Source: Treponema sp. (lineage in GTDB: Bacteria > Spirochaetota > Spirochaetia > Treponematales > UBA12059). From it: 25,440 bases of DNA. The stretch spans positions 1-25,440 of the forward strand of contig JAAYUR010000104.1 in assembly GCA_012517645.1 (NCBI GenBank), given 5' to 3'. A program made the position numbers and the translations under genes. Below are positions 10,298 through 25,440 of this stretch, piece after piece (position 1 is the first letter of the stretch; the number at the start of each line of letters is the position of its first letter). Under the pieces are notes generated by a model. That model searched no databases, was not told where the DNA came from, and saw only the letters and a list, made by a program, of their open reading frames with translations.

Positions 10298-10417
10298 GTG
10301 AACCCTGGACAGTGGGCAGTAAACGGAAGCGGCATAATGAACGCGCCTGGGGTGTACGCCTCACCGAAGATATCGGACGCGCTCGGCCCCCGTTTCCGGC
10401 CACTGTTTACTGTCCAC
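10298..10417. repeat. Heptamer-arm inverted element, copy A
   Basis: Left arm gtgaacc ctggaca gtgggca gtaaacg (10298-10325), 71 bp spacer, right arm cggccac tgtttac tgtccac (10397-10417, reverse orientation). Confidence 0.8.
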
Positions 10418-10943
10418 TATGCACATACACGATCTTGTCCTCCCCGGCCTCCTCCCAGCGGGCCAGTACGAAGAGGAGATCGGACAGGCGGTTCATGTAT
10501 TTCCGAAGCGCGGGAGACACCTCGGACTCCCGGGCCAGGGTGAGTATGCGGCGTTCCGCCCTTCGGGCGACGGTTCGGGCGATGTCGAGCTTCGCGGACT
10601 GCACGGTGGAACCCGGGACGACGAAGCCCTTCAAGCCCAGCCGGCCTTCGAAGCGCTCCACGTACCCGAAGAGCCGCTCCTCGTCCCCCGGCAGTACGGG
10701 ATCCGTGAAGGGCTTCCCCCGGGAGGCCAGCTCCCCCGCAGCCCGGAAGAGGTCCCGCTGGATCTCCTCGAGGATGGATAGGGTTTCAGGCCGCTTGACC
10801 CAGTGCTTGGCCTCCCCCAGGAAGCTGGACAGCTCGTCCACGGTGCCGTAGGCTTCCACGCGCACATCGTCCTTGCGAACCCTCTCTCCGGACCATAGGT
10901 CCGTGAGACCCCCGTCTCCGGTCTTGGTCGAAATGGTGCTCAT
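10407..10943 (-). CDS. pduO: ATP:cob(I)alamin adenosyltransferase, PduO type
   Basis: 178 aa. ISTKTGDGGLT, RVEAYGTVDELSS, ARTVARRAER, YMNRLSDLLFVLAR. Confidence 0.92.
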   Translation of the reverse strand: MSTISTKTGDGGLTDLWSGERVRKDDVRVEAYGTVDELSSFLGEAKHWVKRPETLSILEEIQRDLFRAAGELASRGKPFTDPVLPGDEERLFGYVERFEGRLGLKGFVVPGSTVQSAKLDIARTVARRAERRILTLARESEVSPALRKYMNRLSDLLFVLARWEEAGEDKIVYVHSGQ

Positions 10944-10946
10944 CCT

Positions 10947-12173
10947 TCAGTCCACCAGGTCCTCGTCGCCTTCCAGCGACAACTCCCCGTCCTCCCAACG
11001 CTGTTTGAACCAGGCGAGGAACTCGCGGGTTCCCTTTTCCACATCCTCCCGGCGTTGGGCTCCCAGGATCTCGTACTCCTCCTGGATGATGAGACGCCGG
11101 GTCTGGGAAACGTTCTGGAAGATCTTGTCCCGGAAGGCGGCGCTCTTGCCCTTCAGGACCAGGGCGATCTCTCGCTCCGAGAGGTCCCTCAGGCGCTTCT
11201 GCACCTCCCGATCCGGCACCCGCAGGATGTCGTCCAGGGTGAACAGCCGCTCCCGGATGGAATCCGAGAGGTCCCGATTGTCCTCTTCCAGGTTGTTCAG
11301 GATGGTCTCTTCCAGGTTCGAGTCCACATGGCGCAGGATGTTCGCCAAGGCCGAGCGGCCGTCCACCTCCTCGGTGGCGGAATGCCCGATGCGGCGGATC
11401 TTTTCCCGGATGCCCTCTTCCATGCGGCGAAGGACCTCGGGATCCACCTTTTCCAGCCGGGCTATGCGGCGGACGACCTCGGTGCGGACGGGATCCCCGA
11501 GGCTCACGATCACGGCGCTGGCAAGCCGGGGTTCCAGGTAGGGCAGCAGGACGCTCATGACCTCCGGAGACTCGTTTCGAAGGAGGGCGACAAGCTCCTT
11601 GGGATCGAAGTCGTTCAGGAACTGGAAGGGCTTTGCGGACTCGGGAACCGCTTTTCGGAGGAGTTCCCGGGCCTTGTCGTCCCCGAATGCGGCGGCCAAC
11701 ATCCGCTGGGCGGTTTCCGCTCCGCCTTCGATGGACGCGCCCTGGGTTTTTACGAGCCATCCGAACTCCGTAAGGATCTCGTTGGCCTCGATGGTGTCTA
11801 TCCGGTCTATGCCGGCGATGGCCCGGGAAACCCGCTCGATCTCGTCGGGCTTCATGTGACGGATGACCTTGGCGGCCTCCTCCTGGCCGAGGAGGAGCAA
11901 AAACTTGGCGGCCTTCTCTATGCCGGGCACGCCCGTCTTGAGGAGGGCCTCGGCCTTTTCCGCCCCGAAGTCCGCGGTAGGCCGGGGAGAGGAAGAGGGT
12001 TCCCCTCGGGATTCCTTCGTTCCCTTCCCGCCGACGGTCTTGGATGTTCCCGTTCTCTTGCGTCGGTCCGCCGGGCGGGACGGCTCGGGAGACTCGGATC
12101 CTCCCGGGGGGGACGGGGAGGCGGGACCCGGTTTCCCGCGGTAGGCTTTTTCCAGTCTATCTTTCATGTTCAT
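10947..12173 (-). CDS. fliG: FliG-family flagellar motor switch protein, divergent orphan paralogue
   Basis: GIEKAAKFLLLLGQEEAAKVIRHM..DEIERVSRAIA, KPFQFL, LFTLDDI, REIALVLKG, KIFQNVSQTR. The track's TTG start (12212) coincides with a -35 box, so ATG 12173 or 12167 is preferred. Confidence 0.85.
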   Translation of the reverse strand: MNMKDRLEKAYRGKPGPASPSPPGGSESPEPSRPADRRKRTGTSKTVGGKGTKESRGEPSSSPRPTADFGAEKAEALLKTGVPGIEKAAKFLLLLGQEEAAKVIRHMKPDEIERVSRAIAGIDRIDTIEANEILTEFGWLVKTQGASIEGGAETAQRMLAAAFGDDKARELLRKAVPESAKPFQFLNDFDPKELVALLRNESPEVMSVLLPYLEPRLASAVIVSLGDPVRTEVVRRIARLEKVDPEVLRRMEEGIREKIRRIGHSATEEVDGRSALANILRHVDSNLEETILNNLEEDNRDLSDSIRERLFTLDDILRVPDREVQKRLRDLSEREIALVLKGKSAAFRDKIFQNVSQTRRLIIQEEYEILGAQRREDVEKGTREFLAWFKQRWEDGELSLEGDEDLVD

Positions 12174-12183
12174 ATCGAATCCC

Positions 12184-12212
12184 ATAGTATACGGGGCTTG
12201 CCGAGCGGTCAA
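12184..12212 (-). promoter_or_regulatory. sigma70-like promoter for fliG-pduO
   Basis: Minus strand TTGACC (12212-12207), 17 nt, TACTAT (12189-12184). Confidence 0.65.
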
Positions 12213-12239
12213 TGAGACGGGTCGACATGCTGCGGTCCA

Positions 12240-13307
12240 CTATGGGAAGGGTCGATTCTCGAGTCGGGCTCGAAGTTCCCCGGCCATGGCCTCGGGGAGG
12301 GGCAGGGGATCCCGGAATCTGGGCCGGTCCGGTTTCCCTTCCGCGTCCCCGACGTTCAGGGTTCCGTTTCCGGCGGTCTCCGCGAGATGCGGAGGCGCGA
12401 AGCGGCCGCGCAGTCCTTCCAGCACGGCCCGGACCACGCCGGAGGCCTCGGTTTCCGCGGCTTCGCAGAGCTCGAAGAACCCTTCCCGCCGCTCGGCCCC
12501 TCCCGTGCAGGGGTGGACCCAGGTCCGGCCCCCTTCGGCGGCCCAGTCCACGCTCCGGTCGAAGGCCACAGGGTATAGGACCGAGACGATCCGCAGGCCC
12601 TGGGGCCCCCGGAGGTGTCTCAGGAATTCCGAATCCTGTCCCGGTCCCCCGGGGCTCAAGGCCGTCACCGAGGGATTCGTAAGCTGAAGGAAGCGGCGGG
12701 TATCCGCCAGGGCGTTCGCGATCCGGGAAGGCAGGCGGGGGTCTCCGGCGGTCTCCGAGGGGTAGGCCCGCCGGAGGGCGGCGGTCATGCGGGCCGGGAA
12801 TTCCTGCGGGAGATCCTCCTCGGGCACCAGCATCGCCCGAGCGTCGAAGGAGGATACCGGCGTTCCGGTCCTCCGTTCCCAGAGCAGGACGTCCAGTATC
12901 CGTTCCAGGAAGGCGTGGCAGCCCCGGAACCGGTCCGTCTCGGGCTTCCCCGGCTCGGTCCATCCGGAGCCGTGGACGATGTAGGGATGGGCGGCCCTGT
13001 CCAGGGCTCCATGGGTCGCGAATCCCAACAGGAAAGCCGCCCACGGGGAGTACGGATCTCCGTCGTCCCGGACCCAGGCATCCAGCATCCCCTCCAGGAG
13101 GCGGCCGTAGCCCCTCCTATGGACCAGGACGCCGTAGTGGAGGGCCAGAGGGCGGGTCCGCTGGCTGTGATAGAAGATGTCCGGTCCCTGGCAGCCCAGG
13201 CGGAAGACGGGACCGAGGGGGCCGGAGAGCAGGATCCGGGCTTGACCGGGATCCGCACGGATCAGGGCCGCTTCCCCCGTCAGGGCGTGGGCGATCTGGG
13301 AGGGCAT
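12240..13307 (-). CDS. Zinc-dependent phospholipase C family-like protein
   Basis: MPSQIAH at the N-terminus, LGCQGPDIFYH, FLLGFATHGALDRAAHPYI, HAFLERILD match the metal-ligand pattern of the family. ATG 13307 is preferred over the track start 13382, which lies in the divergent promoter region. Confidence 0.7.
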   Translation of the reverse strand: MPSQIAHALTGEAALIRADPGQARILLSGPLGPVFRLGCQGPDIFYHSQRTRPLALHYGVLVHRRGYGRLLEGMLDAWVRDDGDPYSPWAAFLLGFATHGALDRAAHPYIVHGSGWTEPGKPETDRFRGCHAFLERILDVLLWERRTGTPVSSFDARAMLVPEEDLPQEFPARMTAALRRAYPSETAGDPRLPSRIANALADTRRFLQLTNPSVTALSPGGPGQDSEFLRHLRGPQGLRIVSVLYPVAFDRSVDWAAEGGRTWVHPCTGGAERREGFFELCEAAETEASGVVRAVLEGLRGRFAPPHLAETAGNGTLNVGDAEGKPDRPRFRDPLPLPEAMAGELRARLENRPFP

Positions 13308-13315
13308 ATACGTAG

Positions 13316-13344
13316 AAAATACTCCGGGACCTCGTTCCATGGAA
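13316..13344 (-). promoter_or_regulatory. Possible promoter for the PLC-like gene (near-leaderless)
   Basis: Minus strand TTCCAT (13344-13339), 17 nt, TATTTT (13321-13316), 8 nt before ATG 13307; no SD. Confidence 0.4.
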
Positions 13345-13353
13345 GGTCCTTCG

Positions 13354-13382
13354 TTGGCTTTTTTCGAGAAACCAAGTATCAT
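13354..13382 (+). promoter_or_regulatory. sigma70-like promoter for htrA
   Basis: TTGGCT (13354-59), 17 nt, TATCAT (13377-82), followed by a GGAGG RBS and ATG 13403. Confidence 0.65.
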
Positions 13383-13402
13383 GATATCCGGAGGAGATCC
13401 CT

Positions 13403-14665
13403 ATGAGGCTCTATTCCCGCGGACAGGTCGTGTTGTTCTCGGTTTGTTCCTTCGCCGTGGCCTTGCTGGCAGCCTTCGGTCTCGGATTGCTGCGTCTTCC
13501 GGTCCCCGGGAAACCCGCGGCAGGTGACGCGGCCCCCGCCTCCCTGGAGAGGTACGACACCCGCGCTCCGGCCGTCCCGTCCGAGCCCGGCGTCATCTCG
13601 TCCCCCCACATCCTTACCGCCGACACCTTACAGGAGTACACCCAGGACGAGCGGGAAAACATCAGCGTCTACGAGAGACTCAACTCCGGGGTGGTCAACA
13701 TCACGACCGAAGTCGTCTCCATCAACTATTTTCTGGAACCCGTTCCCAGCGCAGGCGGATCCGGTTCCGGGTCCATCATCGATCCGGCGGGCTATGTCCT
13801 GACCAACTACCACGTGGTCAAGGACGCTTTCAAGGTGTACGTAAATCTCTCGGACGGAAGCCGGTACGAGGGAAAGGTGCAGGGCACCGACGAGGAGAAC
13901 GACCTGGCGGTCCTTAAGTTCGATCCCCCCAAGGACCGAAGGCTTACGGTCATCCCCTACGGAGACTCCTCGGGGCTCCGGGTCGGTCAGAAGGTGCTCG
14001 CGATCGGCAACCCCTTCGGCCTGGAGCGCACCCTTACCCGGGGTATCGTCTCCGGGATCGGCCGTCCCGTCCAGCAGGATTCCAAAACCATCATCCGGGA
14101 CATGATCCAGACCGACGCGTCCATCAACCCCGGTAACTCCGGAGGTCCTCTGCTCAATTCCCGGGGGGAGATGATCGGCATCAACACCATGATCTATTCC
14201 CCCTCGGGGGGCTCCGTGGGAGTGGGCTTCGCCGTGCCCGTGAACACCGCCAAGCGGGTCGTGCCGGACCTCATCCGGTACGGCATGGTCAAGCGGGGAT
14301 GGATCGACATCACCGCGATCCAGCTCTTCCCCGCCCTGGTGGAGTTCATGAAGGAACGGGGATACCCCGTGCCGGTGGAGCAGGGCCTCCTGGTCTCCCA
14401 AGCCCGGCGGAACGGGAACGCCGACCGCGCGGGTATCCGGGGCGGTTCGACCCCCGCCCGGTATTACTCCAGCGTGTTCTACGTCGGCGGGGACATCATC
14501 ACCGCCGTCGCGGGCAAGAAGGTGGCCAGCATCGCGGACCTATATTCCGCGCTGGAGGACACCAAGCCCGGGCAGGAGGTGGAGGTGGAGTACTTCCGTT
14601 CCGGCAGGAAGCTCACCGTCAAGCTTGCCCTCTCGGACCGCGCGGATTACAGGAAGCAGGAGTAG
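13403..14665 (+). CDS. htrA: HtrA/DegP-family trypsin-like serine protease with one PDZ domain
   Basis: 420 aa. N-terminal hydrophobic anchor, GSGSII, LTNYHVV (His), DLAVLK (Asp), IQTDASINPGNSGGPLL (Ser), C-terminal PDZ (GDIITAV). Confidence 0.93.
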   Translation: MRLYSRGQVVLFSVCSFAVALLAAFGLGLLRLPVPGKPAAGDAAPASLERYDTRAPAVPSEPGVISSPHILTADTLQEYTQDERENISVYERLNSGVVNITTEVVSINYFLEPVPSAGGSGSGSIIDPAGYVLTNYHVVKDAFKVYVNLSDGSRYEGKVQGTDEENDLAVLKFDPPKDRRLTVIPYGDSSGLRVGQKVLAIGNPFGLERTLTRGIVSGIGRPVQQDSKTIIRDMIQTDASINPGNSGGPLLNSRGEMIGINTMIYSPSGGSVGVGFAVPVNTAKRVVPDLIRYGMVKRGWIDITAIQLFPALVEFMKERGYPVPVEQGLLVSQARRNGNADRAGIRGGSTPARYYSSVFYVGGDIITAVAGKKVASIADLYSALEDTKPGQEVEVEYFRSGRKLTVKLALSDRADYRKQE

Positions 14666-14691
14666 GCCGCGGGAAGCGCCTACCGGGACTC

Positions 14692-14763
14692 ACCACGGAG
14701 CTCACGGAGAGCACGGAGCCGGACGTACCGCGTAATTTCGGACGGGACAGGATAGACAGGATA
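14692..14763 (+). repeat. Two 9-mer tandem repeat tracts between htrA and uvrB
   Basis: accacggag ctcacggag agcacggag (14692-14718) and gacaggata gacaggata (14746-14763). Confidence 0.8.
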
Positions 14764-14771
14764 GGGAGAGG

Positions 14772-14813
14772 ATGAAACCATTTAAGGTAGTCGCGCCCTA
14801 CGGTCCGGCCGGA
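14772..14813 (+). repeat. Synonymously diverged duplicate of uvrB codons 1-14; opens a 43-aa ORF 14772-14903
   Basis: ATGAAACCATTTAAGGTAGTCGCGCCCTACGGTCCGGCCGGA versus uvrB 14890-14931 ATGAAGCCGTTTAAGGTAGTCGCACCCTACGGCCCCGCGGGC: 35/42 nt identical and the same peptide, MKPFKVVAPYGPAG. Confidence 0.9.
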
Positions 14814-14889
14814 GTATCGCACGCCGCGGAAGCGGCGCCGTACAATCCGATTCCCCGCGATCCGGCCGCGGGGCCGCGCGAGGGATTCC

Positions 14890-16881
<1,992 letters not shown>

Positions 16882-16882
16882 C

Positions 16883-19156
16883 ATGGGGGAAACTCAGGAA
16901 CGGGTAGGACGGATGTCCGGGCGGTTCGGATCCTGGTACCTGGATCCGAAGGAGGTGGAGGGCGCCCGCATGAGCGCCCGGCTCCACCCCTACGACAAGC
17001 TCTTCTCCCCGATCCGGGTCAACCGGCTGGAGATCAAGAACCGGATCGTCCTTGCGCCCATGGGCAATTTCAGCATGGCCGAGGAGACGGGACGCCCTAG
17101 CTCCCGGATGGCGGAGTATTTCGCCGCCCGGGCGGCCGGGGGCGCGGGGCTTCTGACCTCCGGCCTCGTCCCGGTGAGCCACGGCATAGATCCCAGCGTG
17201 ACGGAGCCCGACGGCTTGTCCTATTTCCCCCGCATAGACCGGAGCCGCACGAATTTCGCGGGGTGGCGGGAGATCGCCTCCCGGTGCCGGGAGCATGGGG
17301 CTCGGTTTTTCATCCAGCTCACCCCGGGCCTTGGGCGGGTCGGCTCTCCGGAATGCCTGGTCACAAAGCGCCGACTCCCGGTTTCGGCATCCTGGAATCC
17401 CAACTTCTACATGCCCCTCGTCCCGTGCCGGCCCCTCTCGGACCGGGAGCTCCGGAGGATCGTGCGAAGGACCGGGCAGGCCGCGGCGGACGCCAAGGCC
17501 GCGGGGATCGACGGAGTCTACCTCCACGGCCACGAGGGGTATCTCCTGGAGCAGCTCTCCAACCGGGCCTTCAACCGGAGGAGGCTCGGGGCCTTCTCGG
17601 ACTGGAAGGCCTTCGGCACGGCCCTGGTGCGGGAGATCCGCGGGCGAACCGGGGACGAGTATCCCATCATGTACCGGATCGATCTATCCCTGGCCCTGGC
17701 GGAGACCTACGGGGACCGGATGCGGACGGTTCCCCGGCTCCGGCGTTTTGCGGGGGAGCGGGGCGCCGAGGAAACCCTGGATCTCCTGGAATCCTTGGTT
17801 GCCGCGGGCGTGGACCTGGTGGACGTGGACCTGGGCTGTTACGACAACTGGTGGCTGCCCCATCCACCGGGACCCATGCCCCCCGGCTGCTACCTGGACG
17901 CGGCGCGGATCGTGAAAGAACATTTTGAAAGGAAAGGCATACGCTCGAACGCGGGGCTGCAGGTTCCCGTGGTGGCGGTCGGAAAGCTCGGCTTCCCGGA
18001 CCTGGCGGAGCGCGCCCTCCGGGACGGGGCCTGCGACATGGTGATGCTGGGCCGACCCCTGCTGGCGGATCCCGAGTGGCCGAACAAGGCCTTCGCGGGC
18101 CGGGTCGATCGGATTCGGCCCTGCATCGGTGACCAGGAAGGCTGCCTGGGCGAGCTGGTGGAAGGCGGCCGGCCCTGCTGCGCCGTCAACCCCCGTACCG
18201 GCTTCGAGGACCGTTTGAACGGCTCGGAGCTCTCACCGGCACGCCGGCCGGGCAGGATAGCCGTGGTCGGGGCCGGTCCGGCGGGCGTCACCGCAGCCCT
18301 GGCGGCCTCCAGAAGGGGTCACCGGGTCACTCTGTTCGAGGCCCGCCGGGGGATCGGTGGGATGCTCGTGCCCGGGTCCCGTCCGGCGATCAAGTTCGAG
18401 GTGGCGAACTACCTGGAATGGCTTCAACGGGAGGTCGAGGGCGCTCGGGACGAAGGGAACCTAGCCCTGGAACTCGGCCGGGCTCCCACGGCGGCGGAGC
18501 TCAAATCCGGCGGCTATGACGCGATCGTCGTCGCCACAGGTTCCCGTCCGGTCCGGCCGGCTGTGCCCGGAATCGACGACCCCCGGGTCGTGCAGGCCGT
18601 CGACCTTCTGCGGGAACCGGAACGGGCTCGGGGTGTCCGACGGGCCGTGGTCGTAGGCGGCGGGACCGTGGGCTGCGAAACCGCCCTCTGGCTTGCCCGG
18701 GAGCTGGGAGTTCGGGAGCTCAGCCTGGTCGAGATGCTGCCCCGCCTGATGCCGGGCGTCTGCACCGCCAACCGCGGCTGGTTGATCCATTACATGGAGG
18801 AGGCGGGTGTCCGGCTTTGGAACTGCGCGCGGCTCGCCGAGGTCCGGAACGGCGAGGTTCGGGTAATCCGGAACGTCTCCCGCACCGTGCCGGATCCCCG
18901 GGTGACCTGGGAGCCCCTCCTGCCGGAGAACGTGCCCAATCCCTTCGCCCGCCGGATCCGGGTGGAGGAGCGCGAGGAGACCCTCGGGGCGGATATCGTT
19001 GTCCTTGCCGCGGGTGCCCGGCCTGAGGACGGGCTGTACAAGGAGTGCGTCGCGGCCTGCGCGGCCCCTCTGATACGGAACGTCGGGGACTCCCACAAGC
19101 CCGGGCGCGTCCTGGAAGCCGTCCGTTCGGGGTACGCGGCGGGTACTACCGTCTAG
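16883..19156 (+). CDS. NADH:flavin oxidoreductase (OYE barrel + Fe-S + FAD domain), 2-enoate reductase-like
   Basis: LFSPIRVNRLEIKNRIVLAPM, DGVYLHGHEGYLLEQL, LGRPLLADPEWPNK, PCIGDQEGC...CAVNP, VVGAGPAG, VVVGGGTVGCETA. Start uncertain (16883, 16913 or 16970). Confidence 0.88.
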   Translation: MGETQERVGRMSGRFGSWYLDPKEVEGARMSARLHPYDKLFSPIRVNRLEIKNRIVLAPMGNFSMAEETGRPSSRMAEYFAARAAGGAGLLTSGLVPVSHGIDPSVTEPDGLSYFPRIDRSRTNFAGWREIASRCREHGARFFIQLTPGLGRVGSPECLVTKRRLPVSASWNPNFYMPLVPCRPLSDRELRRIVRRTGQAAADAKAAGIDGVYLHGHEGYLLEQLSNRAFNRRRLGAFSDWKAFGTALVREIRGRTGDEYPIMYRIDLSLALAETYGDRMRTVPRLRRFAGERGAEETLDLLESLVAAGVDLVDVDLGCYDNWWLPHPPGPMPPGCYLDAARIVKEHFERKGIRSNAGLQVPVVAVGKLGFPDLAERALRDGACDMVMLGRPLLADPEWPNKAFAGRVDRIRPCIGDQEGCLGELVEGGRPCCAVNPRTGFEDRLNGSELSPARRPGRIAVVGAGPAGVTAALAASRRGHRVTLFEARRGIGGMLVPGSRPAIKFEVANYLEWLQREVEGARDEGNLALELGRAPTAAELKSGGYDAIVVATGSRPVRPAVPGIDDPRVVQAVDLLREPERARGVRRAVVVGGGTVGCETALWLARELGVRELSLVEMLPRLMPGVCTANRGWLIHYMEEAGVRLWNCARLAEVRNGEVRVIRNVSRTVPDPRVTWEPLLPENVPNPFARRIRVEEREETLGADIVVLAAGARPEDGLYKECVAACAAPLIRNVGDSHKPGRVLEAVRSGYAAGTTV

Positions 19157-19210
19157 CGGTCCCTCGGGGATACGTAGATCCGCGGAGGGTTCCGGTACGG
19201 CGCGCCGGGG

Positions 19211-21493
19211 TCATGCCTTGCCCGTTCGAACCATCTCCAGGTTTTTCCGGTACGTCGGAGAATCCGGAGCCAGGAGCACCGCGGTCTCCAGGAGGCGCTC
19301 CGAACGCTCCCGGTCGCCCAGGCGGAAACTGGCCAGTCCGAGCATGTTGAGCACCCGGGGATCCTCGGGGCGCTGGGCGCGGATCTCTTCCAGGAGTATG
19401 GACGCGGATCGTGCGTCCCCGGACTTGAGCAGGCGGCCGGCGCGGTCGAACCGGGCGGCCCAGTCTCCAGTCCGGGCTATGGCGGCGGTGGCTTCCGTGC
19501 GATACCCCAAGAATTGCGCCAGGAGCGCGGCCCGGTCGTCCGTCCGCGCGGCGCCCCGGCTGAAGGCGTCCACGTCGTCCATGAGCCCCTGGATGAAGTC
19601 CTCGGGTTTTGAGTCCCGGTTTCCCCGGACATACTCCATCAGACGGCCGTACTCGTAGAAATCGCCGTCCGGATCCCGGGCCTCCACGATGCCGTCGGTG
19701 AACATGAGCAGGAAATCCCCCGGCTCCATCCGGGTCCTGCCTTCCTCGAAGGCGAAATCCCCGCTGATTCCCAGGAGCTGTCCTCCCGCCACATCGAGCT
19801 TCTCGATGGTGCGGTCCTTCCGCACCAGCAGGACCGGGGGATGGCCGGCGTTCGAATAGGTCAGGGAGCCGTCCACCACGTCCAAAACGAGGTAGAACGC
19901 CGAGAGATAGTAGGTTTCCCCGCCGATGATCTCGTGGATCTCCTGGTTGACGGCCCTGCAGACTTCCGCGGGACCGTACCCGAGGCCCGCCTGGGTGCGG
20001 AAGGCGACCTTGGCCATGGCGGCCACCAGGGCCGCGGCCATGCCGTGGCCGGAAACATCCGCGATCAGCAGGGCGTAGCGGCGGCCGTCGATGGGAAGGA
20101 CGTCGTAGAGGTCCCCGCCCACCGCCTGCATGGCCACATACCGGCATCCGAACCTAAGCTCCGGAGCCGCAGGCAGGTCGACGGCCTGGGGGATGGTTTT
20201 CCTCTGGACCACCTCCGCCATCTGCATCTCCTTCTCCATTTGGAGGTTCCGTGCGGTCAGCTCCTTGTTCGCATGGTCCAGCTGGCGGGTCCTGTCCTCG
20301 ACCATCCTCTCCAGATTCTTGGAATAGTCTTCGATCTCCTTTCGCTGACCTTCGATGCGGGCGATGTTCTCCTTGAGGGATGCGGCGACCTGGTTGAAGA
20401 AGTCTCCGAGTTCCCCGAACTCGTCGCGGCTTTTTATCTGCACGTGCCAGGAAAGGTTGCCCTTGGCCAGCTCGATGGCTCCCCGCTTGAGCGCTTCGAT
20501 GGGCGCCGAGATCGCCCGGGCTTCCGCCAGGGCGAAGAGAACGGCCAGCAGGATGGCGGCTCCGAGGATGCCCAGGAGGGTCCCGTAGAACTCCAGCACC
20601 GGCCGCGCGATGTCCGAGTACTTCCCGTAGGTGACTACGGTCCAACTGGTGCGGGGAATGCGGCGGGCCGCCCAGTAGAGGTTCTTGCTTCGGTTGCGGC
20701 TCCAGGTCTCCGGGGTGCCCAGGATGGCCTCGTTCATGGCCGCCAGGGGGGTGCCGGGAGAGAAGATGTTTCCCGCCGGATCGTCCAATTTCAGGACGAG
20801 GGATTTGTCCTCGTGGGTTATGAAGGAGCCTTTCGCGTCGATGAGGTAGGTCTTCGACGAGGGCGTGTACTTTTGGACGGAAACAACCTCCGTCAGCCTG
20901 GAAATGTACATGTCCAGGGCAAGCACTCCCAGGAGTTTGCCGCTTTCATCCCGGACCGAGCGGGAGAGGGACACGACGATTTCCTTGGTGTTGGCGTCGA
21001 TGTAGGGATCGCTCATCACGGCCTGGTCCTCGTCCCGGGCCCGGACGAACCAGGGGCGGGACGGCCAGACGAAATCGGGCTCTGGGTTCCACTCGTCCGC
21101 ATCCACGTAATAGCCCCCGTTGGCGGTCCGGGTGACCCCGTCCTTGACGGAGGTGAACCGGGGATCGAAGGCCTCGGTCCCGTAGTAGATCCAGGCGACA
21201 TCCGGCTCCTCCCGAGTCTTGGCGATCAGGATGTCCAAGAGAGCCTCGGGGTTGTTCCGGTTTTGGAGCACCGAGTGCTTCAGGGTTTCCAGAATCTGGA
21301 ATTTATCCCCCAGCCAGGTCTCGAAATCCTTCGCCAGGATGCTCGTGTCCCGGCCGATGTTCCCGACCACGGCCCGTTCGACTGTGCCGACCAAGGTGAA
21401 GGAGACCAAGATCCCGATGCCCACGGTGATGACCGCGAACAGGAGGACGAGGGTTAGAAAGATGCGGGTACCTATGGGAAGGCGGACAGCCAT
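19211..21493 (-). CDS. Membrane sensor PP2C/SpoIIE-family phosphatase (TM-dCache-TM-HAMP-coiled coil-PP2C-TPR)
   Basis: Two TM segments, Cache motifs RPWFVRA and SDPYIDANT, HAMP (SRDEFGELGDFFN), PP2C motifs VGGDLYD, IADVSGHG, YSNAGHPP, FTDGIVEA, DDRAALL, then a TPR-like tail. ATG 21493 has a GGGAG RBS. Confidence 0.9.
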   Translation of the reverse strand: MAVRLPIGTRIFLTLVLLFAVITVGIGILVSFTLVGTVERAVVGNIGRDTSILAKDFETWLGDKFQILETLKHSVLQNRNNPEALLDILIAKTREEPDVAWIYYGTEAFDPRFTSVKDGVTRTANGGYYVDADEWNPEPDFVWPSRPWFVRARDEDQAVMSDPYIDANTKEIVVSLSRSVRDESGKLLGVLALDMYISRLTEVVSVQKYTPSSKTYLIDAKGSFITHEDKSLVLKLDDPAGNIFSPGTPLAAMNEAILGTPETWSRNRSKNLYWAARRIPRTSWTVVTYGKYSDIARPVLEFYGTLLGILGAAILLAVLFALAEARAISAPIEALKRGAIELAKGNLSWHVQIKSRDEFGELGDFFNQVAASLKENIARIEGQRKEIEDYSKNLERMVEDRTRQLDHANKELTARNLQMEKEMQMAEVVQRKTIPQAVDLPAAPELRFGCRYVAMQAVGGDLYDVLPIDGRRYALLIADVSGHGMAAALVAAMAKVAFRTQAGLGYGPAEVCRAVNQEIHEIIGGETYYLSAFYLVLDVVDGSLTYSNAGHPPVLLVRKDRTIEKLDVAGGQLLGISGDFAFEEGRTRMEPGDFLLMFTDGIVEARDPDGDFYEYGRLMEYVRGNRDSKPEDFIQGLMDDVDAFSRGAARTDDRAALLAQFLGYRTEATAAIARTGDWAARFDRAGRLLKSGDARSASILLEEIRAQRPEDPRVLNMLGLASFRLGDRERSERLLETAVLLAPDSPTYRKNLEMVRTGKA

Positions 21494-21528
21494 GGCGGAC
21501 TCCCTATGGAACACTGGTATCGGGAGGG

Positions 21529-21537
21529 ATTATAGCA
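21529..21537 (-). promoter_or_regulatory. Extended -10 promoter for the PP2C gene
   Basis: Minus strand TGcTATAAT (21537-21529), 35 nt upstream of the ATG. No -35 consensus; that position is occupied by the heptamer arm. Confidence 0.65.
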
Positions 21538-21541
21538 TACT

Positions 21542-21663
21542 GTGGACGGTGGACGGTGAACTGTGAACGGAAATGAAAAAACAGGGCGGTTGCCCTGCAT
21601 CCCTGGGGAGTCGATCGTGTCTGTGCGCATAATCGGCGCTTTCGAGCACCGTCCAACGTCCAC
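21542..21663. repeat. Heptamer-arm inverted element, copy B
   Basis: Left arm gtggacg gtggacg gtgaact gtgaacg (21542-69), 73 bp spacer, right arm cgagcac (degenerate) cgtccaa cgtccac (21643-63). Confidence 0.75.
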
Positions 21664-21676
21664 CGAAGGAGCCCCC

Positions 21677-22873
21677 ATGCCGTTCCCTCCCTTCTCCCGC
21701 CGCATTCCCGCCCCCCGGGAACCCAACGCCCTGGGGCGGGCCCTGGCCGAAGCCCGGGCTGCGGGCTGCCGGGTGATCAACCTAGCCGAGAGCAACCCGA
21801 CCCGCACGGGGGCGGCCCTGCCGGCGGATCGGGTCCTGGGCGCCGTTTCCCTGCCCGCCTGCCTATCCTACGAGCCGGATCCCCGGGGCCTTCCCGCCGC
21901 CCGGGACGCCGTCGCAGCCTGGTACGCCTCCCAAGGCGCTGCGGTCGCATCCGAGGACATCTTCCTGGCCGCCAGCACCTCCGAGGCGTACGGATGGCTC
22001 TTCAAGCTCCTCGCCGACCCGGGGGACGCCGTCCTGGTGCCCAAGCCAGGGTATCCGTTGTTCGAGTACCTGGCCGGCCTCGAGAACGTCGAAGCCGTCC
22101 CGTACACCCTGGAATACAGCCACCCCGGGGGTTGGCGGGTCGACCTGGACGCCCTGGAGTCCGCCGTACGGAGCCGGCTCCCTAAGGCCGTCATCCTCAT
22201 CCACCCCAACAATCCGACGGGTTCCTATATCCGGGCCTCGGAACGGCCTCGAATCCTGGGGCTGTGTCGGGAGGCCGGGGCGGCCGTCATCGCGGACGAG
22301 GTCTTTCTGCCCTATCCCCTGGACGACCCGGGGGAGGAGACCTTCGCGGGGGAGCGGGACCTGCCCTGCTTCGTCCTCAACGGTTTCTCCAAGCTCCTTG
22401 GGCTGCCCCAGATGAAGCTGGGCTGGATCGTCCTGGCGGGCCCCTCCGGGTATCGTGGGGAGGCGGCCGCGCGTCTTGAGATCATCGCGGACACCTACCT
22501 TTCCGCGGGAGCCCCCATCCTGAACGCCGCCCCGGAGCTACTCCCCCTGGCTTCCGGATTCACGAAGGAGCTTCGGCGGCGGCTCTCGACAAATCTCGCC
22601 GGGCTTCGGGGTCTCATGGAGGGGGAGGGGAGCCCCTACCGGGTGCTCCGGTGTTCCGGCGGCTGGACGGCGGTCCTGGAGGTGCCCCGGATCCTGTCCG
22701 AGGAGGACCTCGTCCTGGGGCTTCTACGGGAAGAAGGGGTCTTCGCCCATCCTGGGTACTTCTTCGACTTCCCCCGGGAGGCCTTCCTGGCCCTGAGCCT
22801 TCTGCCGAGGACGGAAGATTTTCAGGAAGGTGTCCAGCGCCTGCGCAGGTACTTGGACGGGCTTTTGAAGTAG
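21677..22873 (+). CDS. PLP-dependent aminotransferase, class I/II
   Basis: LADPGDAVLVPKPGYPLFEYL, IHPNNPTG, IADEVF, NGFSKLLGLPQMKLGW (PLP lysine). ATG 21677 follows AAGGAG, giving 398 aa. Confidence 0.9.
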   Translation: MPFPPFSRRIPAPREPNALGRALAEARAAGCRVINLAESNPTRTGAALPADRVLGAVSLPACLSYEPDPRGLPAARDAVAAWYASQGAAVASEDIFLAASTSEAYGWLFKLLADPGDAVLVPKPGYPLFEYLAGLENVEAVPYTLEYSHPGGWRVDLDALESAVRSRLPKAVILIHPNNPTGSYIRASERPRILGLCREAGAAVIADEVFLPYPLDDPGEETFAGERDLPCFVLNGFSKLLGLPQMKLGWIVLAGPSGYRGEAAARLEIIADTYLSAGAPILNAAPELLPLASGFTKELRRRLSTNLAGLRGLMEGEGSPYRVLRCSGGWTAVLEVPRILSEEDLVLGLLREEGVFAHPGYFFDFPREAFLALSLLPRTEDFQEGVQRLRRYLDGLLK

Positions 22874-22978
22874 AACCCGGGCCGGCGCGGGGATGCGGAC
22901 CTGGCCGAGGATCGGCGGGCCGCGGGAGGCGCGCGCCCCGGGCCTGGGGAACGGGCTTCGGGCCGGGGATCGGGACGC

Positions 22979-23007
22979 TTGCCCACGTACCGCCCGGTCG
23001 ATACTAT
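22979..23007 (+). promoter_or_regulatory. sigma70-like promoter for folD-folE2
   Basis: TTGCCC (22979-84), 17 nt, TACTAT (23002-07). The track's TTG start is this -35 box. Confidence 0.65.
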
Positions 23008-23071
23008 ACTCCTCAAGGAAACGGGGGTTGTCCAAGAATGCATCGAATCCCCCGCCGCCCGGGGAGGTCCC

Positions 23072-23944
23072 ATGGCTGCTGAGATCATCGACGGAAAGGC
23101 CTTGGCCGCATCGATACGGGAAAGCGTGAAAAAGCGGGCGTCCGCCCTTGCGGCCCGGGGCGTGGTGCCCGGCTTGGCGGTCATCCTGGTCGGCGAGGAC
23201 CCGGCCAGCGTTTCCTACGTCACCTCCAAGGAGAAAGCCTGCGAGGAGGCGGGGATGCGGAGCTTCGAGCGACGTCTGCCTGCCTCCACCCCCCAGGCCG
23301 AGCTGGTGTCCCTGGTGGAATCCTTCAACAGGGATCCTGCGGTCCACGGGATCCTGGTCCAGCTTCCCCTGCCGAGGCACATCGACGAGGACGCCGTCAT
23401 CGCGGCCATCTCCCCGGAAAAGGACGTGGACGGCTTCACCCCCGTGAACGTGGGACGGATGATCCTGGAGCAGCCCTGCTTTCTTCCCTGCACCCCCCAC
23501 GGCATCATTCGCTTGGTCGATCGAGCGGGGGTTCCCACCCGGGGCGCCCACGTGGTCATCGTAGGGCGGTCCAACATCGTGGGCAAGCCCCTGGCCAACT
23601 TATTCATCCGCAAGGAGCTCAACTCCACGGTGACCGTCTGCCATACGGGAACCAAGGACCTGGCCGAGCATACCCGCCGGGCGGATATCCTGATCGCCTG
23701 CGCCGGCCGGCCCCGCCTCGTCACCGGGGACATGATCAAGCCCGGGGCCTGCGTTATCGACGTGGGGGTCAACCGGGTGGAGGATCCTGGCGCGTCCAAG
23801 GGCTACCGCCTTGTGGGGGACGTGGATTTCGAATCCGCCCTGCCGGTCGCGGGCTCCATCACCCCCGTGCCCGGGGGTGTCGGTCCCATGACCATAGCCA
23901 TGCTCCTTTCCAACACTGTGGAATCCGCGGAGCGGACCGCCTAG
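23072..23944 (+). CDS. folD: Bifunctional methylenetetrahydrofolate dehydrogenase/cyclohydrolase
   Basis: [72 protein letters not shown]; 290 aa. Confidence 0.97.
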
Positions 23945-23947
23945 AGC

Positions 23948-24721
23948 ATGATCGACATCCAGTCCATGCGGGACGAACGCCGCATCCCCATCCAGAAGGT
24001 CGGAGTCAAGGGCCTCCGGTACCCCATCATGCTCCGGGACAAGGAGCATGGAACCCAGTGGACCACCGCGGTCGCCAACCTCTACGCGGATCTCCCCCAC
24101 GATTTCAAGGGCACCCACATGAGCCGCTTCATCGAGGTCTTCAACGCCCATCGGGAGGACCTGTCCATGCCCAGGTTCCTCGGGATGTTGGGGGAGATCC
24201 GGCAGGCCCTGGACGCGGAGACCGCCTACTCGGACATACATTTCCCCTACTTCATCGAAAAGGCGGCTCCCGTTTCCGGCGCCAAGAGCGTGATGAGCTA
24301 CGACTGCGTCTATTCCGGCCGCGTATCCGACGAGGCCCGGTCCTTCCGGGTTTCCGTCGCGGTCCCCGTTCAGACCGTATGCCCCTGCTCAAAGGCGATA
24401 AGCGCCCAGGGGGCCCACAACCAGCGCGGGATCGTGACGGCGACGGTCGAGGTAGGTCCCTTTTTCTGGCTCGAGGACCTCATTTCGGTGATCGAGTCCG
24501 CCGCATCCTGCGGAGTCTACACCCTTCTCAAGCGGGACGATGAAAAGTACGTCACCGAGAAGGCCTTCGACAATCCCCGATTCGTGGAAGACGTCGTCCG
24601 GGACGCCCTCCGGAACATTGCGGGCATGGGGATCTTCAAGGGCTTTTCCGTGGAGGCGGAGAATTTCGAGAGCATCCACAACCACAGCGCGTACGCGTAT
24701 GTGGAATACGGTAAACAGTGA
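23948..24721 (+). CDS. folE2: GTP cyclohydrolase I type B
   Basis: 257 aa. IPIQKVGVKGLRYP, KGTHMSRF, VCPCSK, GAHNQRG, NPRFVEDVVR, ENFESIHNHSAYA. Confidence 0.95.
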   Translation: MIDIQSMRDERRIPIQKVGVKGLRYPIMLRDKEHGTQWTTAVANLYADLPHDFKGTHMSRFIEVFNAHREDLSMPRFLGMLGEIRQALDAETAYSDIHFPYFIEKAAPVSGAKSVMSYDCVYSGRVSDEARSFRVSVAVPVQTVCPCSKAISAQGAHNQRGIVTATVEVGPFFWLEDLISVIESAASCGVYTLLKRDDEKYVTEKAFDNPRFVEDVVRDALRNIAGMGIFKGFSVEAENFESIHNHSAYAYVEYGKQ

Positions 24722-24860
24722 ACGGTGGACGGTAGACGGATGTGTTTCGGCAGCTGACGGAATCGTCAGAGGCTATGGCGGGAATCGGCGGCGGTCCCTT
24801 TGTTTCATTTCCGTCCAGGGTCCACTGTTCACCGTCCACTGTTCACTGTTCACTGTCCAC
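24711..24860. repeat. Heptamer-arm inverted element, copy C
   Basis: Left arm gtaaaca gtgaacg gtggacg gtagacg (24711-38), 73 bp spacer, right arm cgtccag ggtccac tgttcac cgtccac tgttcac tgttcac tgtccac (24812-60). Confidence 0.88.
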
Positions 24861-24875
24861 CTCAAGGAGCCTCCC

Positions 24876-25440
24876 ATGCCCTTCAATCGAGTTTCCCGGG
24901 TCGACGACCTGGTTCCGGTGCGGCGCGCGATCGTGTCGGTCTACGACAAGGCCGGGCTCGAACTCCTCGCCTCGGGGCTCGTCGAGGCTTGCCCGGGCAT
25001 CCGCGTCTATTCCACCGGGGGCACCCTGAAGGTCCTCCGGGACATCCTGGACGTCCGGGGGGAGGCCGTACTCGTGCCTATGGAAGCCTACACCGGCCAG
25101 CCCGAGATGAAGGGCGGCCTCGTGAAGACCCTGGATTGGAAGATCTACCTGGGCCTTCTGGCCGAACCCTACGACACGGAGCATCGCGCGGATCTGGAAC
25201 GGTTGGGCGCCGTATCCTTCGACCTGGTGGTGGGGAACCTGTATCCCTTCCGGACCGTCGCATCCTCCCGGGTGCCCTTCGAGACGGTCCGACAGAACAT
25301 CGACATCGGAGGCCCCTGCATGCTTCGGGCCGCGGCCAAGAACTTCCTCCGGGTCGCGGCCGTCTGCGACCCGGAGGATTACACGGAGATCCTGGGCGAA
25401 CTCCGCCGGACCGGGGGAAGCCTGTGTCTTGCCAGCCGGG
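24876..25440 (+). CDS. purH: PurH-type IMP cyclohydrolase (MGS-like) domain, runs off the right edge of the window
   Basis: Translated by hand: MPFNRVSRVDDLVPVRRAIVSVYDKAG...YSTGGT...GGLVKTLDWKIY...DLVVGNLYPF...NIDIGGPCMLRAAAKN. AAGGAG RBS. Confidence 0.88.
   Translation, partial: MPFNRVSRVDDLVPVRRAIVSVYDKAGLELLASGLVEACPGIRVYSTGGTLKVLRDILDVRGEAVLVPMEAYTGQPEMKGGLVKTLDWKIYLGLLAEPYDTEHRADLERLGAVSFDLVVGNLYPFRTVASSRVPFETVRQNIDIGGPCMLRAAAKNFLRVAAVCDPEDYTEILGELRRTGGSLCLASR

Follow-up and report, generated by a model that had tools for sequence, protein, structure and literature searches.

Inverted tandem-heptamer arrays around a palindromic core of near-constant length at gene junctions of a Treponema genome

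STRR heptamer repeats are dispersed tandem heptamers of filamentous cyanobacteria. In Geobacter metallireducens, families of four to five tandem heptanucleotides were annotated as putative regulatory sites (PMC2700814). The GGGAATC arrays of Xanthomonas were found to prefer four units, to form 70-75 convergent pairs per genome and to be mostly transcribed; they are mostly intergenic, lie near or overlap a stop codon, are kept between species with changes in unit number, and were interpreted as quadruplex formers (PMC4692102). The 23S intervening sequence of Coxiella burnetii contains a 28-bp stem within which RNase III cuts, and its 5' end carries tandem GACAGAT heptamers, the number of which varies between strains (PMC4990558). 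The Correia/NEMIS hairpins of Neisseria were proposed as RNase III targets, and the ERIC elements alter the stability of the flanking mRNA (PMC2229807). The present analysis concerns a comparable design that was found three times in a stretch of 25,440 nucleotides from Treponema sp. (contig JAAYUR010000104.1; this whole stretch is hereafter called the window), in which four tandem heptamers of the GTGRACN type are followed by a spacer and then by three to seven inverted units. The anatomy and the coordinates of these three elements, named A, B and C, were confirmed as given in the original prediction, which had been made from the letters of the window.

The elements were found to belong to a dispersed family, which is probably an old and now immobile palindrome of the heptamer-armed class, resembling the MITEs (miniature inverted-repeat transposable elements) and the REP sequences; by analogy with described hairpins, its arms would act as a stem of double-stranded RNA at gene junctions. 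The window is contig C56 of the draft genome G000 (3.09 Mb, 554 contigs, 65% G+C, 93% complete, 5% contaminated), and the sequencing runs that hold most of it are wastewater, sludge and bioreactor metagenomes; in those from wastewater and sludge, 77-86% of its sampled words are present. The pattern GTGRACNGTGRACNGTGRAC (three tandem GTGRACN units, at most one mismatch) was found to have 141 matches in the 3.09-Mb genome, whereas the backwards pattern had none. Arrays of two or more units numbered 200 in the genome and 16 in the reversed genome. Among the array pairs lying within 130 nt of each other, 55 were convergent, one was divergent and four were on the same strand. Four units were the commonest state among the arrays of at least three units (60 of 111). 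The 141 pattern matches and 55 convergent pairs bear out the expectation of many copies genome-wide.

A peak of spacer lengths near 72 bp had been predicted and was present: 33 of the 55 convergent pairs had spacers of 68-73 nt (70 nt in 12 pairs, 71 in 11, 73 in four, 68 in four and 69 in two). The remaining spacers were mostly about 7 or 14 nt longer, and the inner unit was decayed there. The elements measure 113-150 bp, typically about 126 bp, with inverted arms of 21-49 bp, and at their outer ends the arms fade into degenerate units with no sharp stop. Another 90 arrays were unpaired, 18 of them lying within 200 nt of a contig end, and many contigs of G000 were found to end in an arm; the unpaired arrays near contig ends imply that the repeat breaks the assembly and that the true copy count is higher. 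A rare long-core variant was also found at C23:470-674 of the same genome, in which GTGGAC arms enclose about 170 nt of core with an outer stem of its own (GGAGGAGCCGGG / CCCGGCTCCTTC); spacers of 216 and 237 nt were found in two more pairs.

The three elements of the window are composed as follows (z, folding relative to shuffled sequence).

10298-10325, left arm of element A, four heptamers (GTGAACC CTGGACA GTGGGCA GTAAACG) pairing with 10397-10417
10326-10396, core of element A, 71 nt, unstructured when alone (z -0.6)
10397-10417, right arm of element A, three inverted heptamers
21542-21569, left arm of element B, four heptamers, identical in the related genomes G002 and G003
21570-21642, core of element B, 73 nt (z -1.0 when alone)
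21643-21663, right arm of element B, three inverted units, the innermost a degenerate CGAGCAC, then CGTCCAA and CGTCCAC
24711-24738, left arm of element C, four heptamers
24739-24811, core of element C, 73 nt
24812-24860, right arm of element C, seven inverted heptamers

The spacers had been thought mostly unrelated in sequence, which proved incorrect. The cores of 70 and 71 nt were found to contain the consensus GAAGTG..C.CAG...GCGGC....ACG(C)-nnnn-(G)CGT....GCCGC...CTG.....CACTTC, which is near-identical on both strands, and cores of equal length had a mean pairwise identity of 0.45 against 0.29 for shuffles. From their sequences, the cores descend from one palindromic master, an element of about 126 bp, and equal core length is then expected from descent alone. 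No copies at different loci were found with a core identity above 75%, the only exceptions being an allelic pair and a duplicate in a ribosomal RNA (rRNA) operon; the copies are old. The allelic contig pair of G000, from two strains (C532:2370-2495 and C541:136-261), has flanks about 98% identical and an element core that is only 89% identical; the gene in its left flank stops at a TAG, and in its right flank a gene starts with MIELTQLSGK..., FlbD-like by eye. The duplicate pair (C27:79-195 and C279:79-188) begins with the same 78 nt, by eye the 3' end of a 5S rRNA and a T run, followed by the presence of the same element (cores 99% identical), after which the contigs diverge. The common start implies that at least two rRNA operons have an element at their end.

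A covariance model was built from 19 copies, and 150 candidates were scored per genome, with both strands counted and all counts to be read as lower bounds. The model gave at least 116 matches in G000, at least 139, 136 and 103 in three congeners and at least 23 in a fourth, and the matches listed in these five species all span 97-99 nt, equal to two inner units per side and a core of 69-71 nt. In terms of family copies, these figures amount to at least about 50-70 per genome for four of the species, with about 12 for a fifth. No match of the model was found in the fifth congener or in a neighbouring genus. The three-unit pattern was found in four of the five congeners. The 19 genomes from the family's other genera lacked it, and elsewhere in the order it was found in one genome, from a different family, where the matches of the covariance model were weak, arm-driven and 85-121 nt long. 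Four tandem GTGRACN units, searched in one genome per species, were found in at least 119 stretches from many phyla, and the phyla among the matches listed were Gemmatimonadota, Acidobacteriota, Bacteroidota, Cyanobacteriota and Chloroflexota; the scan was run without a control pattern, and no claim is made that the heptamer is special. The matches listed contained many convergent pairs with loops of 12 to about 110 nt and had covariance scores of at most 45 bits. The arm design is thus widespread, and the family with the 70-nt core is restricted to five of the six species of one genus of uncultured sludge bacteria.

G002 and G003 were found to carry elements A, B and C at the corresponding junctions, and B and C were also found in G004, in which locus A has lost its left arm and is a half element; the orthologs of locus A in G005 end at contig breaks and lie outside the comparison. 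Over eight comparisons, identity was 0.84-0.92 in the arms, 0.71 in the cores and 0.81-0.86 in the coding flanks, and the third codon positions of folE2 were 0.70-0.73 identical between species. By these figures the cores drift at about the silent rate, and the arms are conserved as well as coding DNA. The orthologs of the A core are 71 nt long in both G002 and G003 (identity 66-69%), and those of the C core are 71-73 nt long (identity 56-83%). Arm length was found to change in steps of 7, both between species and between contigs of the same species: the right arm of B contains three units in G004, five in G003 and seven in G002, and the right arm of C contains four to five units in other species and is one unit shorter in same-species contigs of other samples, in which the core and the left arm are identical. 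Indels in the cores amount to 0-2 nt between species. The one alignable ordinary spacer (22873 to about 23110) had gaps of 71 and 7 nt in the alignment with G002, and no anchor for it was found in G003 or G004. These figures give weak, though real, support to a constraint on core length between species. The geometric constraint that had been proposed is accordingly only weakly supported, by core indels of 0-2 nt against a 71-nt indel in one ordinary spacer; the equal length of the copies is expected from descent.

The gene context was taken from a simple gene caller based on G+C content at third codon positions, which recovers the genes of the window, and Pfam domains were assigned. Ordinary housekeeping genes, in every orientation, flank the elements. 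Of 53 genes whose stop codon is turned towards an element, 33 were found to have the stop within the arm at -4, -11, -18 or -25, supplied as TGA by GTGAAC or as TAA by GTAAAC, and another 14 of the 53 have it at most 25 nt outside the arm. A ribosome that arrives from either side meets GTGRAC, and since the unit length of 7 is no multiple of three, an arm presents stops in all frames. The start codon of the next gene mostly lies 6-45 nt beyond the other arm. With stops inside one arm and starts just past the other, the hairpin usually takes up the whole gap apart from the ribosome-binding site, and the next gene then begins 14-45 nt past the arm. No T run was found after the arms, terminator-like sites were no commoner than in shuffles, and the only one in the elements was found inside the core of B; as a family the elements are not intrinsic terminators, which consist of a G+C-rich hairpin and a T run behind it.

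Action as a double-stranded RNA stem appears, by analogy, to be the most likely mechanism of the family. If an element is co-transcribed with its neighbours, the arms would pair as a double-stranded stem of at least 28 bp, which could serve as a substrate of RNase III or as a barrier to exonucleases. Cleavage or blocking at the stem would separate the flanking messages or stabilise them differentially, and the need for the two arms to stay aligned with each other in order to pair would preserve them and restrict core indels. The whole elements were found to fold better than dinucleotide shuffles, with z of -2.6 for A and of -3.9 and -5.3 for the other two.

Several results weigh against the reading of the arms as a double-stranded RNA stem. 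In the metatranscriptomes (assembled contigs of three low-depth runs with 6-7% of the sampled words), no contig was found to bridge an element; some metatranscriptome contigs join the arms of different copies at a depth of about 9-19, which is uninterpretable in view of repeated words and DNA carry-over. RNAalifold returned an empty structure, and relaxed consensus folding gave a single long hairpin, which was then used for the covariation test. On this hairpin 75.7% of the cells were paired against 73.8% with shuffled partners, and compensatory change was at the level of shuffles. At the variable positions of the arms, A-C mismatches were about as frequent as G-U pairs. The two halves of a core pair barely better with each other than with halves of different copies (-25.5 and -24.0 kcal/mol, respectively), and the strand of the flanking gene has no folding advantage over the opposite one (16 of 25, p = 0.6). 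The gaps holding elements were co-directional in 25 cases, convergent in 11 and divergent in eight, which are roughly the background proportions, so that the elements are not specific to operon junctions or to 3' ends. The length constraint is based on eight ortholog comparisons, which are not independent, and on one control spacer. Lastly, the conservation of the arms could stem from replication slippage that homogenises the array, without selection.

The sister species G001, with a silent-site distance similar to that of the other species, was sampled over 820 kb, in which 17 orthologous sites were located, 13 of them with a paired element in G000. One of the 13 (C93) was found to contain the same family with an alignable core, one (C146) an arms-only hairpin without a core, and one a partial state; two sites (C233 and C439) were empty, and the remaining eight contained hairpins whose tandem-repeat arms were of other kinds and whose cores were unrelated. 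Some of the presence/absence polymorphism that had been anticipated was found, at two of the 13 sites, as insertion or loss, and eight of the 13 are occupied by other hairpins. The other arms in G001 consist of octamers (GTGAATNN), heptamers of the GGACTCA type and nonamers (CACGGAGNN). At loci A and B of G001, degenerate GTGRAC/GTGAAT-like units were found beside the stop codons, outside the new arms. These remnants would fit the replacement of the interior of an older element; the alternative is that hairpins were inserted independently into a few gaps that tolerate them. The loops of the GTGAAT-armed family of G001 have no fixed length (12-75 nt), so that the fixed length belongs to the GTGRAC family alone and not to the class.

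The differently armed hairpins in the same gaps suggest selection for a junction hairpin or replacement in place. It is conceivable, though we consider it quite unlikely, that gene junctions of this genus are long-lived "hairpin slots", the interior of which is replaceable by a hairpin of another arm family. Such slots would imply a homing or conversion mechanism aimed at existing hairpins, in the way that intervening sequences replace rRNA tetraloops, and a trans-acting system that reads heptamer arrays across many phyla.

The closest competitor of the double-stranded RNA stem is a neutral relic, in which a dead selfish palindrome has had its arms homogenised by slippage and has inherited its length from the master. 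Such a relic would account for cores that evolve at the synonymous rate, for the lack of covariation and of recent copies, and for arm boundaries that fade outwards into degenerate units, and also for signs of decay, seen in the arms-only G001 ortholog of C146, the half element at locus A of G004 and the 90 unpaired arrays. It is nevertheless somewhat unlikely, as the arms are conserved like coding DNA across species with a silent-site difference of about 30%, both arms are retained at most orthologous sites, and the cores are nearly without indels next to an ordinary spacer with a 71-nt indel. The renewed occupation of eight of the 13 G001 gaps by other-armed hairpins would also be hard to explain if junction hairpins were neutral.

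An association of such arms with four-helix-bundle genes had been mentioned in the original prediction, and it was found to be real in this genus. Genes of PF05635 are present in G001, in G003 (three genes), in G005 and in G025. One of the G003 genes (L186) is bracketed by two complete GTGRAC elements, each with a 70-nt core, and is not inside either of them. Its G001 counterpart, upstream of the same neighbour gene, lies between two short GTGAAT-armed hairpins, and the genes of G005 and G025 are enclosed by inverted arrays, of (GGGAATA)n and of (GGGTGAG)n, respectively. A protein acting in trans, perhaps an Avd-like four-helix bundle or a nucleoid or recombination factor, might instead bind the GTGRAC heptamers of both arms as DNA, with the fixed core of 70-71 bp setting the geometry between the bound arrays. 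This would suit arms that are conserved in sequence and not merely in pairing, the tolerance of mismatched register, the lack of strand bias in folding, and the prevalence of four units in an array whose unit cannot form a G-quadruplex; it would also suit the recurrence of the same heptamer as hairpin arms in many phyla, the hairpins flanking PF05635 genes in the four genomes named, and a core that keeps its length while its sequence drifts. Against a bound array, no PF05635 gene was found in G000, G002 or G004 (89-93% complete) despite more than 50 copies in each, no candidate binding protein was identified, the 7-bp period mismatches the helical repeat of DNA, and the other arm families of the genus have variable loops. 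DNA binding is, on these grounds, an unlikely explanation but, with the neutral relic, a live rival of the RNA stem.

The absence of a transposase and of target-site duplications, noted in the original prediction for the window, was found to extend to the genome. No match to the Y1 transposase (PF01797), on which the REP/REPIN-RAYT systems depend, was found in G000, whereas control genomes matched, and only 5 of 55 flank pairs share 2 nt or more, fewer than with shuffled partners (about 15%). No array pair in this 93%-complete genome encloses a transposase. Copies enclosing an open reading frame (ORF), which would be the autonomous form, had been suggested as something to look for, and none was found in G000; where two arrays lie 800-1000 nt apart, in two cases, each belongs to a complete element, and the pairs bracket an Fpg glycosylase gene and a cyclase-domain gene. 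The idea of a non-autonomous mobile cassette is supported as far as a dispersed non-autonomous hairpin family goes; of current mobility no sign was found, as no copies are more than 75% identical apart from the allelic and rRNA cases. Like classical MITEs the elements are shorter than about 200 bp and end in inverted repeats; neither a target duplication nor a transposase-encoding relative was found in G000. Cassettes that still move, mobilised in trans by an autonomous form carrying a PF05635 gene or another enzyme, are very unlikely. The PF05635 gene between two complete elements in G003, those inside inverted heptamer arrays in G005 and G025, copy numbers running from 0 to about 12 to about 70 among congeners, and the two sites filled in G000 and empty in G001 could all be read in that way. 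However, the G003 gene is bracketed like any other, as are the glycosylase and cyclase-domain genes of G000, and the occurrence of A, B and C in four species makes the insertions old. To our knowledge, proteins of PF05635 (the Avd/S23p family) have no known catalytic activity.

A structured RNA loop domain of fixed size had also been proposed, and a non-coding RNA or riboswitch-like core carried on a long stem is now highly improbable and largely refuted. The fixed length and the conserved boxes GCGGC and ACGC-nnnn-GCGT would agree with such a domain. Nevertheless, the three cores of the window fold like shuffles when alone (z -0.6, -1.0 and -1.0), the consensus is palindromic so that both strands score alike, and the core drifts at the synonymous, neutral rate without covariation. 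In Rfam 15, no match at the gathering score was found in the window, and ten copies gave nothing meaningful at E values up to 1. A compensating RNA domain was likewise considered and dropped, as no copy-specific complementarity was found in the covariation and own-versus-cross pairing tests.

G-quadruplex formation, as proposed for the heptamers of Xanthomonas and Nostoc, would share the four-unit preference, the convergent pairs and the stop-codon overlap described in PMC4692102, but is barely conceivable here, as GTGGACN, GTGAACN and the complementary arm contain no GGG run and at most GG, so that four G-tracts cannot form.

The following genes adjoin the three elements of the window.

10407-10943, minus strand, cobalamin adenosyltransferase gene, its TAA stop (10407-10409) within the right arm of A
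19211-21514, minus strand, SpoIIE-type phosphatase gene, its start 27 nt from the left arm of B
21677, start codon of an aminotransferase gene, 13 nt past the right arm of B
24719-24721, TGA stop of folE2, inside the second unit (GTGAACG) of the left arm of C
24877, start codon of a purH-like gene, 16 nt past the right arm of C

Element B lies between the divergent starts of the phosphatase and aminotransferase genes. On the minus strand of its core, at 21581-21598, a terminator-like hairpin GCAGGGCAACCGCCCTGT was found, followed by the presence of the T run TTTTTCATTT; it is not conserved in G002 or G004 and is a single case, not a feature of the family. Behind B (21657-21685) and behind C (24855-24884), a block AAGGAGCC(C/T)CCC-ATG-CCN-TTC was found, consisting of a ribosome-binding site, ATG, CCN and TTC. 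The block was considered as a part of the element and rejected: it is retained in G001 behind hairpins with quite different arms and therefore belongs to the genes. In other metagenome contigs of the same species, just past the right end of the window (L189:2422-3774), the purH-like gene was called as two ORFs of 224 and 418 amino acids, separated by a gap of about 150 nt that is G+C-rich and contains no heptamers.

A second kind of element was found at 14690-14775 of the window, where three copies of CACGGAGNN (14694-14719) are followed by about 27 nt and by two to three copies of GACAGGATA (14746-14770). The orthologous gap of G001 contains a complete hairpin with the 9-mer arms GACAGGATG / CATCTTGTN, which implies that the window has only the left half. 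The program TRF found about 20-25 arrays of each 9-mer type in G000. At 14772-14931, BLAST aligned the sequence from 14772 onward with the start of uvrB in G001, and the long ORF of the window begins at 14890 in another frame. At the other end of uvrB (16874-16885), this gene and the next one are 1 nt apart, and G001:C14 was found to contain about 60 extra nt forming a G+C-rich hairpin of -33 kcal/mol; this junction is a filled and empty case in the opposite direction, filled in G001.

Tandem heptamer repeats abound in many bacterial phyla, and there is no agreement on what they do; they include the STRR repeats, the GGGAATC arrays of Xanthomonas, the heptanucleotide families of Geobacter and the repeats in the stems of intervening sequences of rRNA. 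In the present family the sequence of the arms and the length of the core are kept while the sequence of the core drifts, which points to something that reads the arms and their distance. The elements also break short-read assemblies and supply the last codons and the stops of real genes, and therefore matter for annotation.

In comparison with known systems, the family resembles the STRR and Geobacter repeats in its dispersed tandem heptamers, often of four or five units, and in some strand-switching pairs; the units and the hosts are different, and a palindromic core of fixed length has not been described for those repeats. The Xanthomonas arrays (PMC4692102) likewise prefer four units, come in convergent pairs, overlap stop codons and persist from species to species, whereas the unit differs and contains no G-tract, and the fixed spacer with a common core, here palindromic and of 70-71 nt, is absent from that report. 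The same four-unit preference, convergent pairing and stop overlap with a unit that does not form quadruplexes argue against the quadruplex explanation as a general one. The Correia/NEMIS, ERIC, RUP and REP/REPIN elements are alike in being of 100-200 bp, intergenic and multicopy, with long stem-loops (PMC2229807). The REPINs depend on the RAYT (Y1) transposase, of which none was found in G000, and the classical MITEs are A+T-rich with TA ends and target duplications, whereas the present elements are G+C-rich with fuzzy tandem-repeat ends and no duplication. The Coxiella intervening sequence, to which other S23p-bearing intervening sequences are similar, is alike in its inverted-repeat stem of about 28 bp, its variable number of tandem heptamers and its lack of a transposase; however, that element lies in a helix of 23S rRNA and carries a PF05635 ORF, whereas the present elements lie between protein-coding genes and contain no ORF. 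The inverted tandem-heptamer arms of the heptamer-armed hairpin class are thus present, and the PF05635 ORF in the loop is absent. We infer that the family is a lineage-specific member of this barely described class, with a function that would follow from the likeness of its arms to the stems of the described hairpins.

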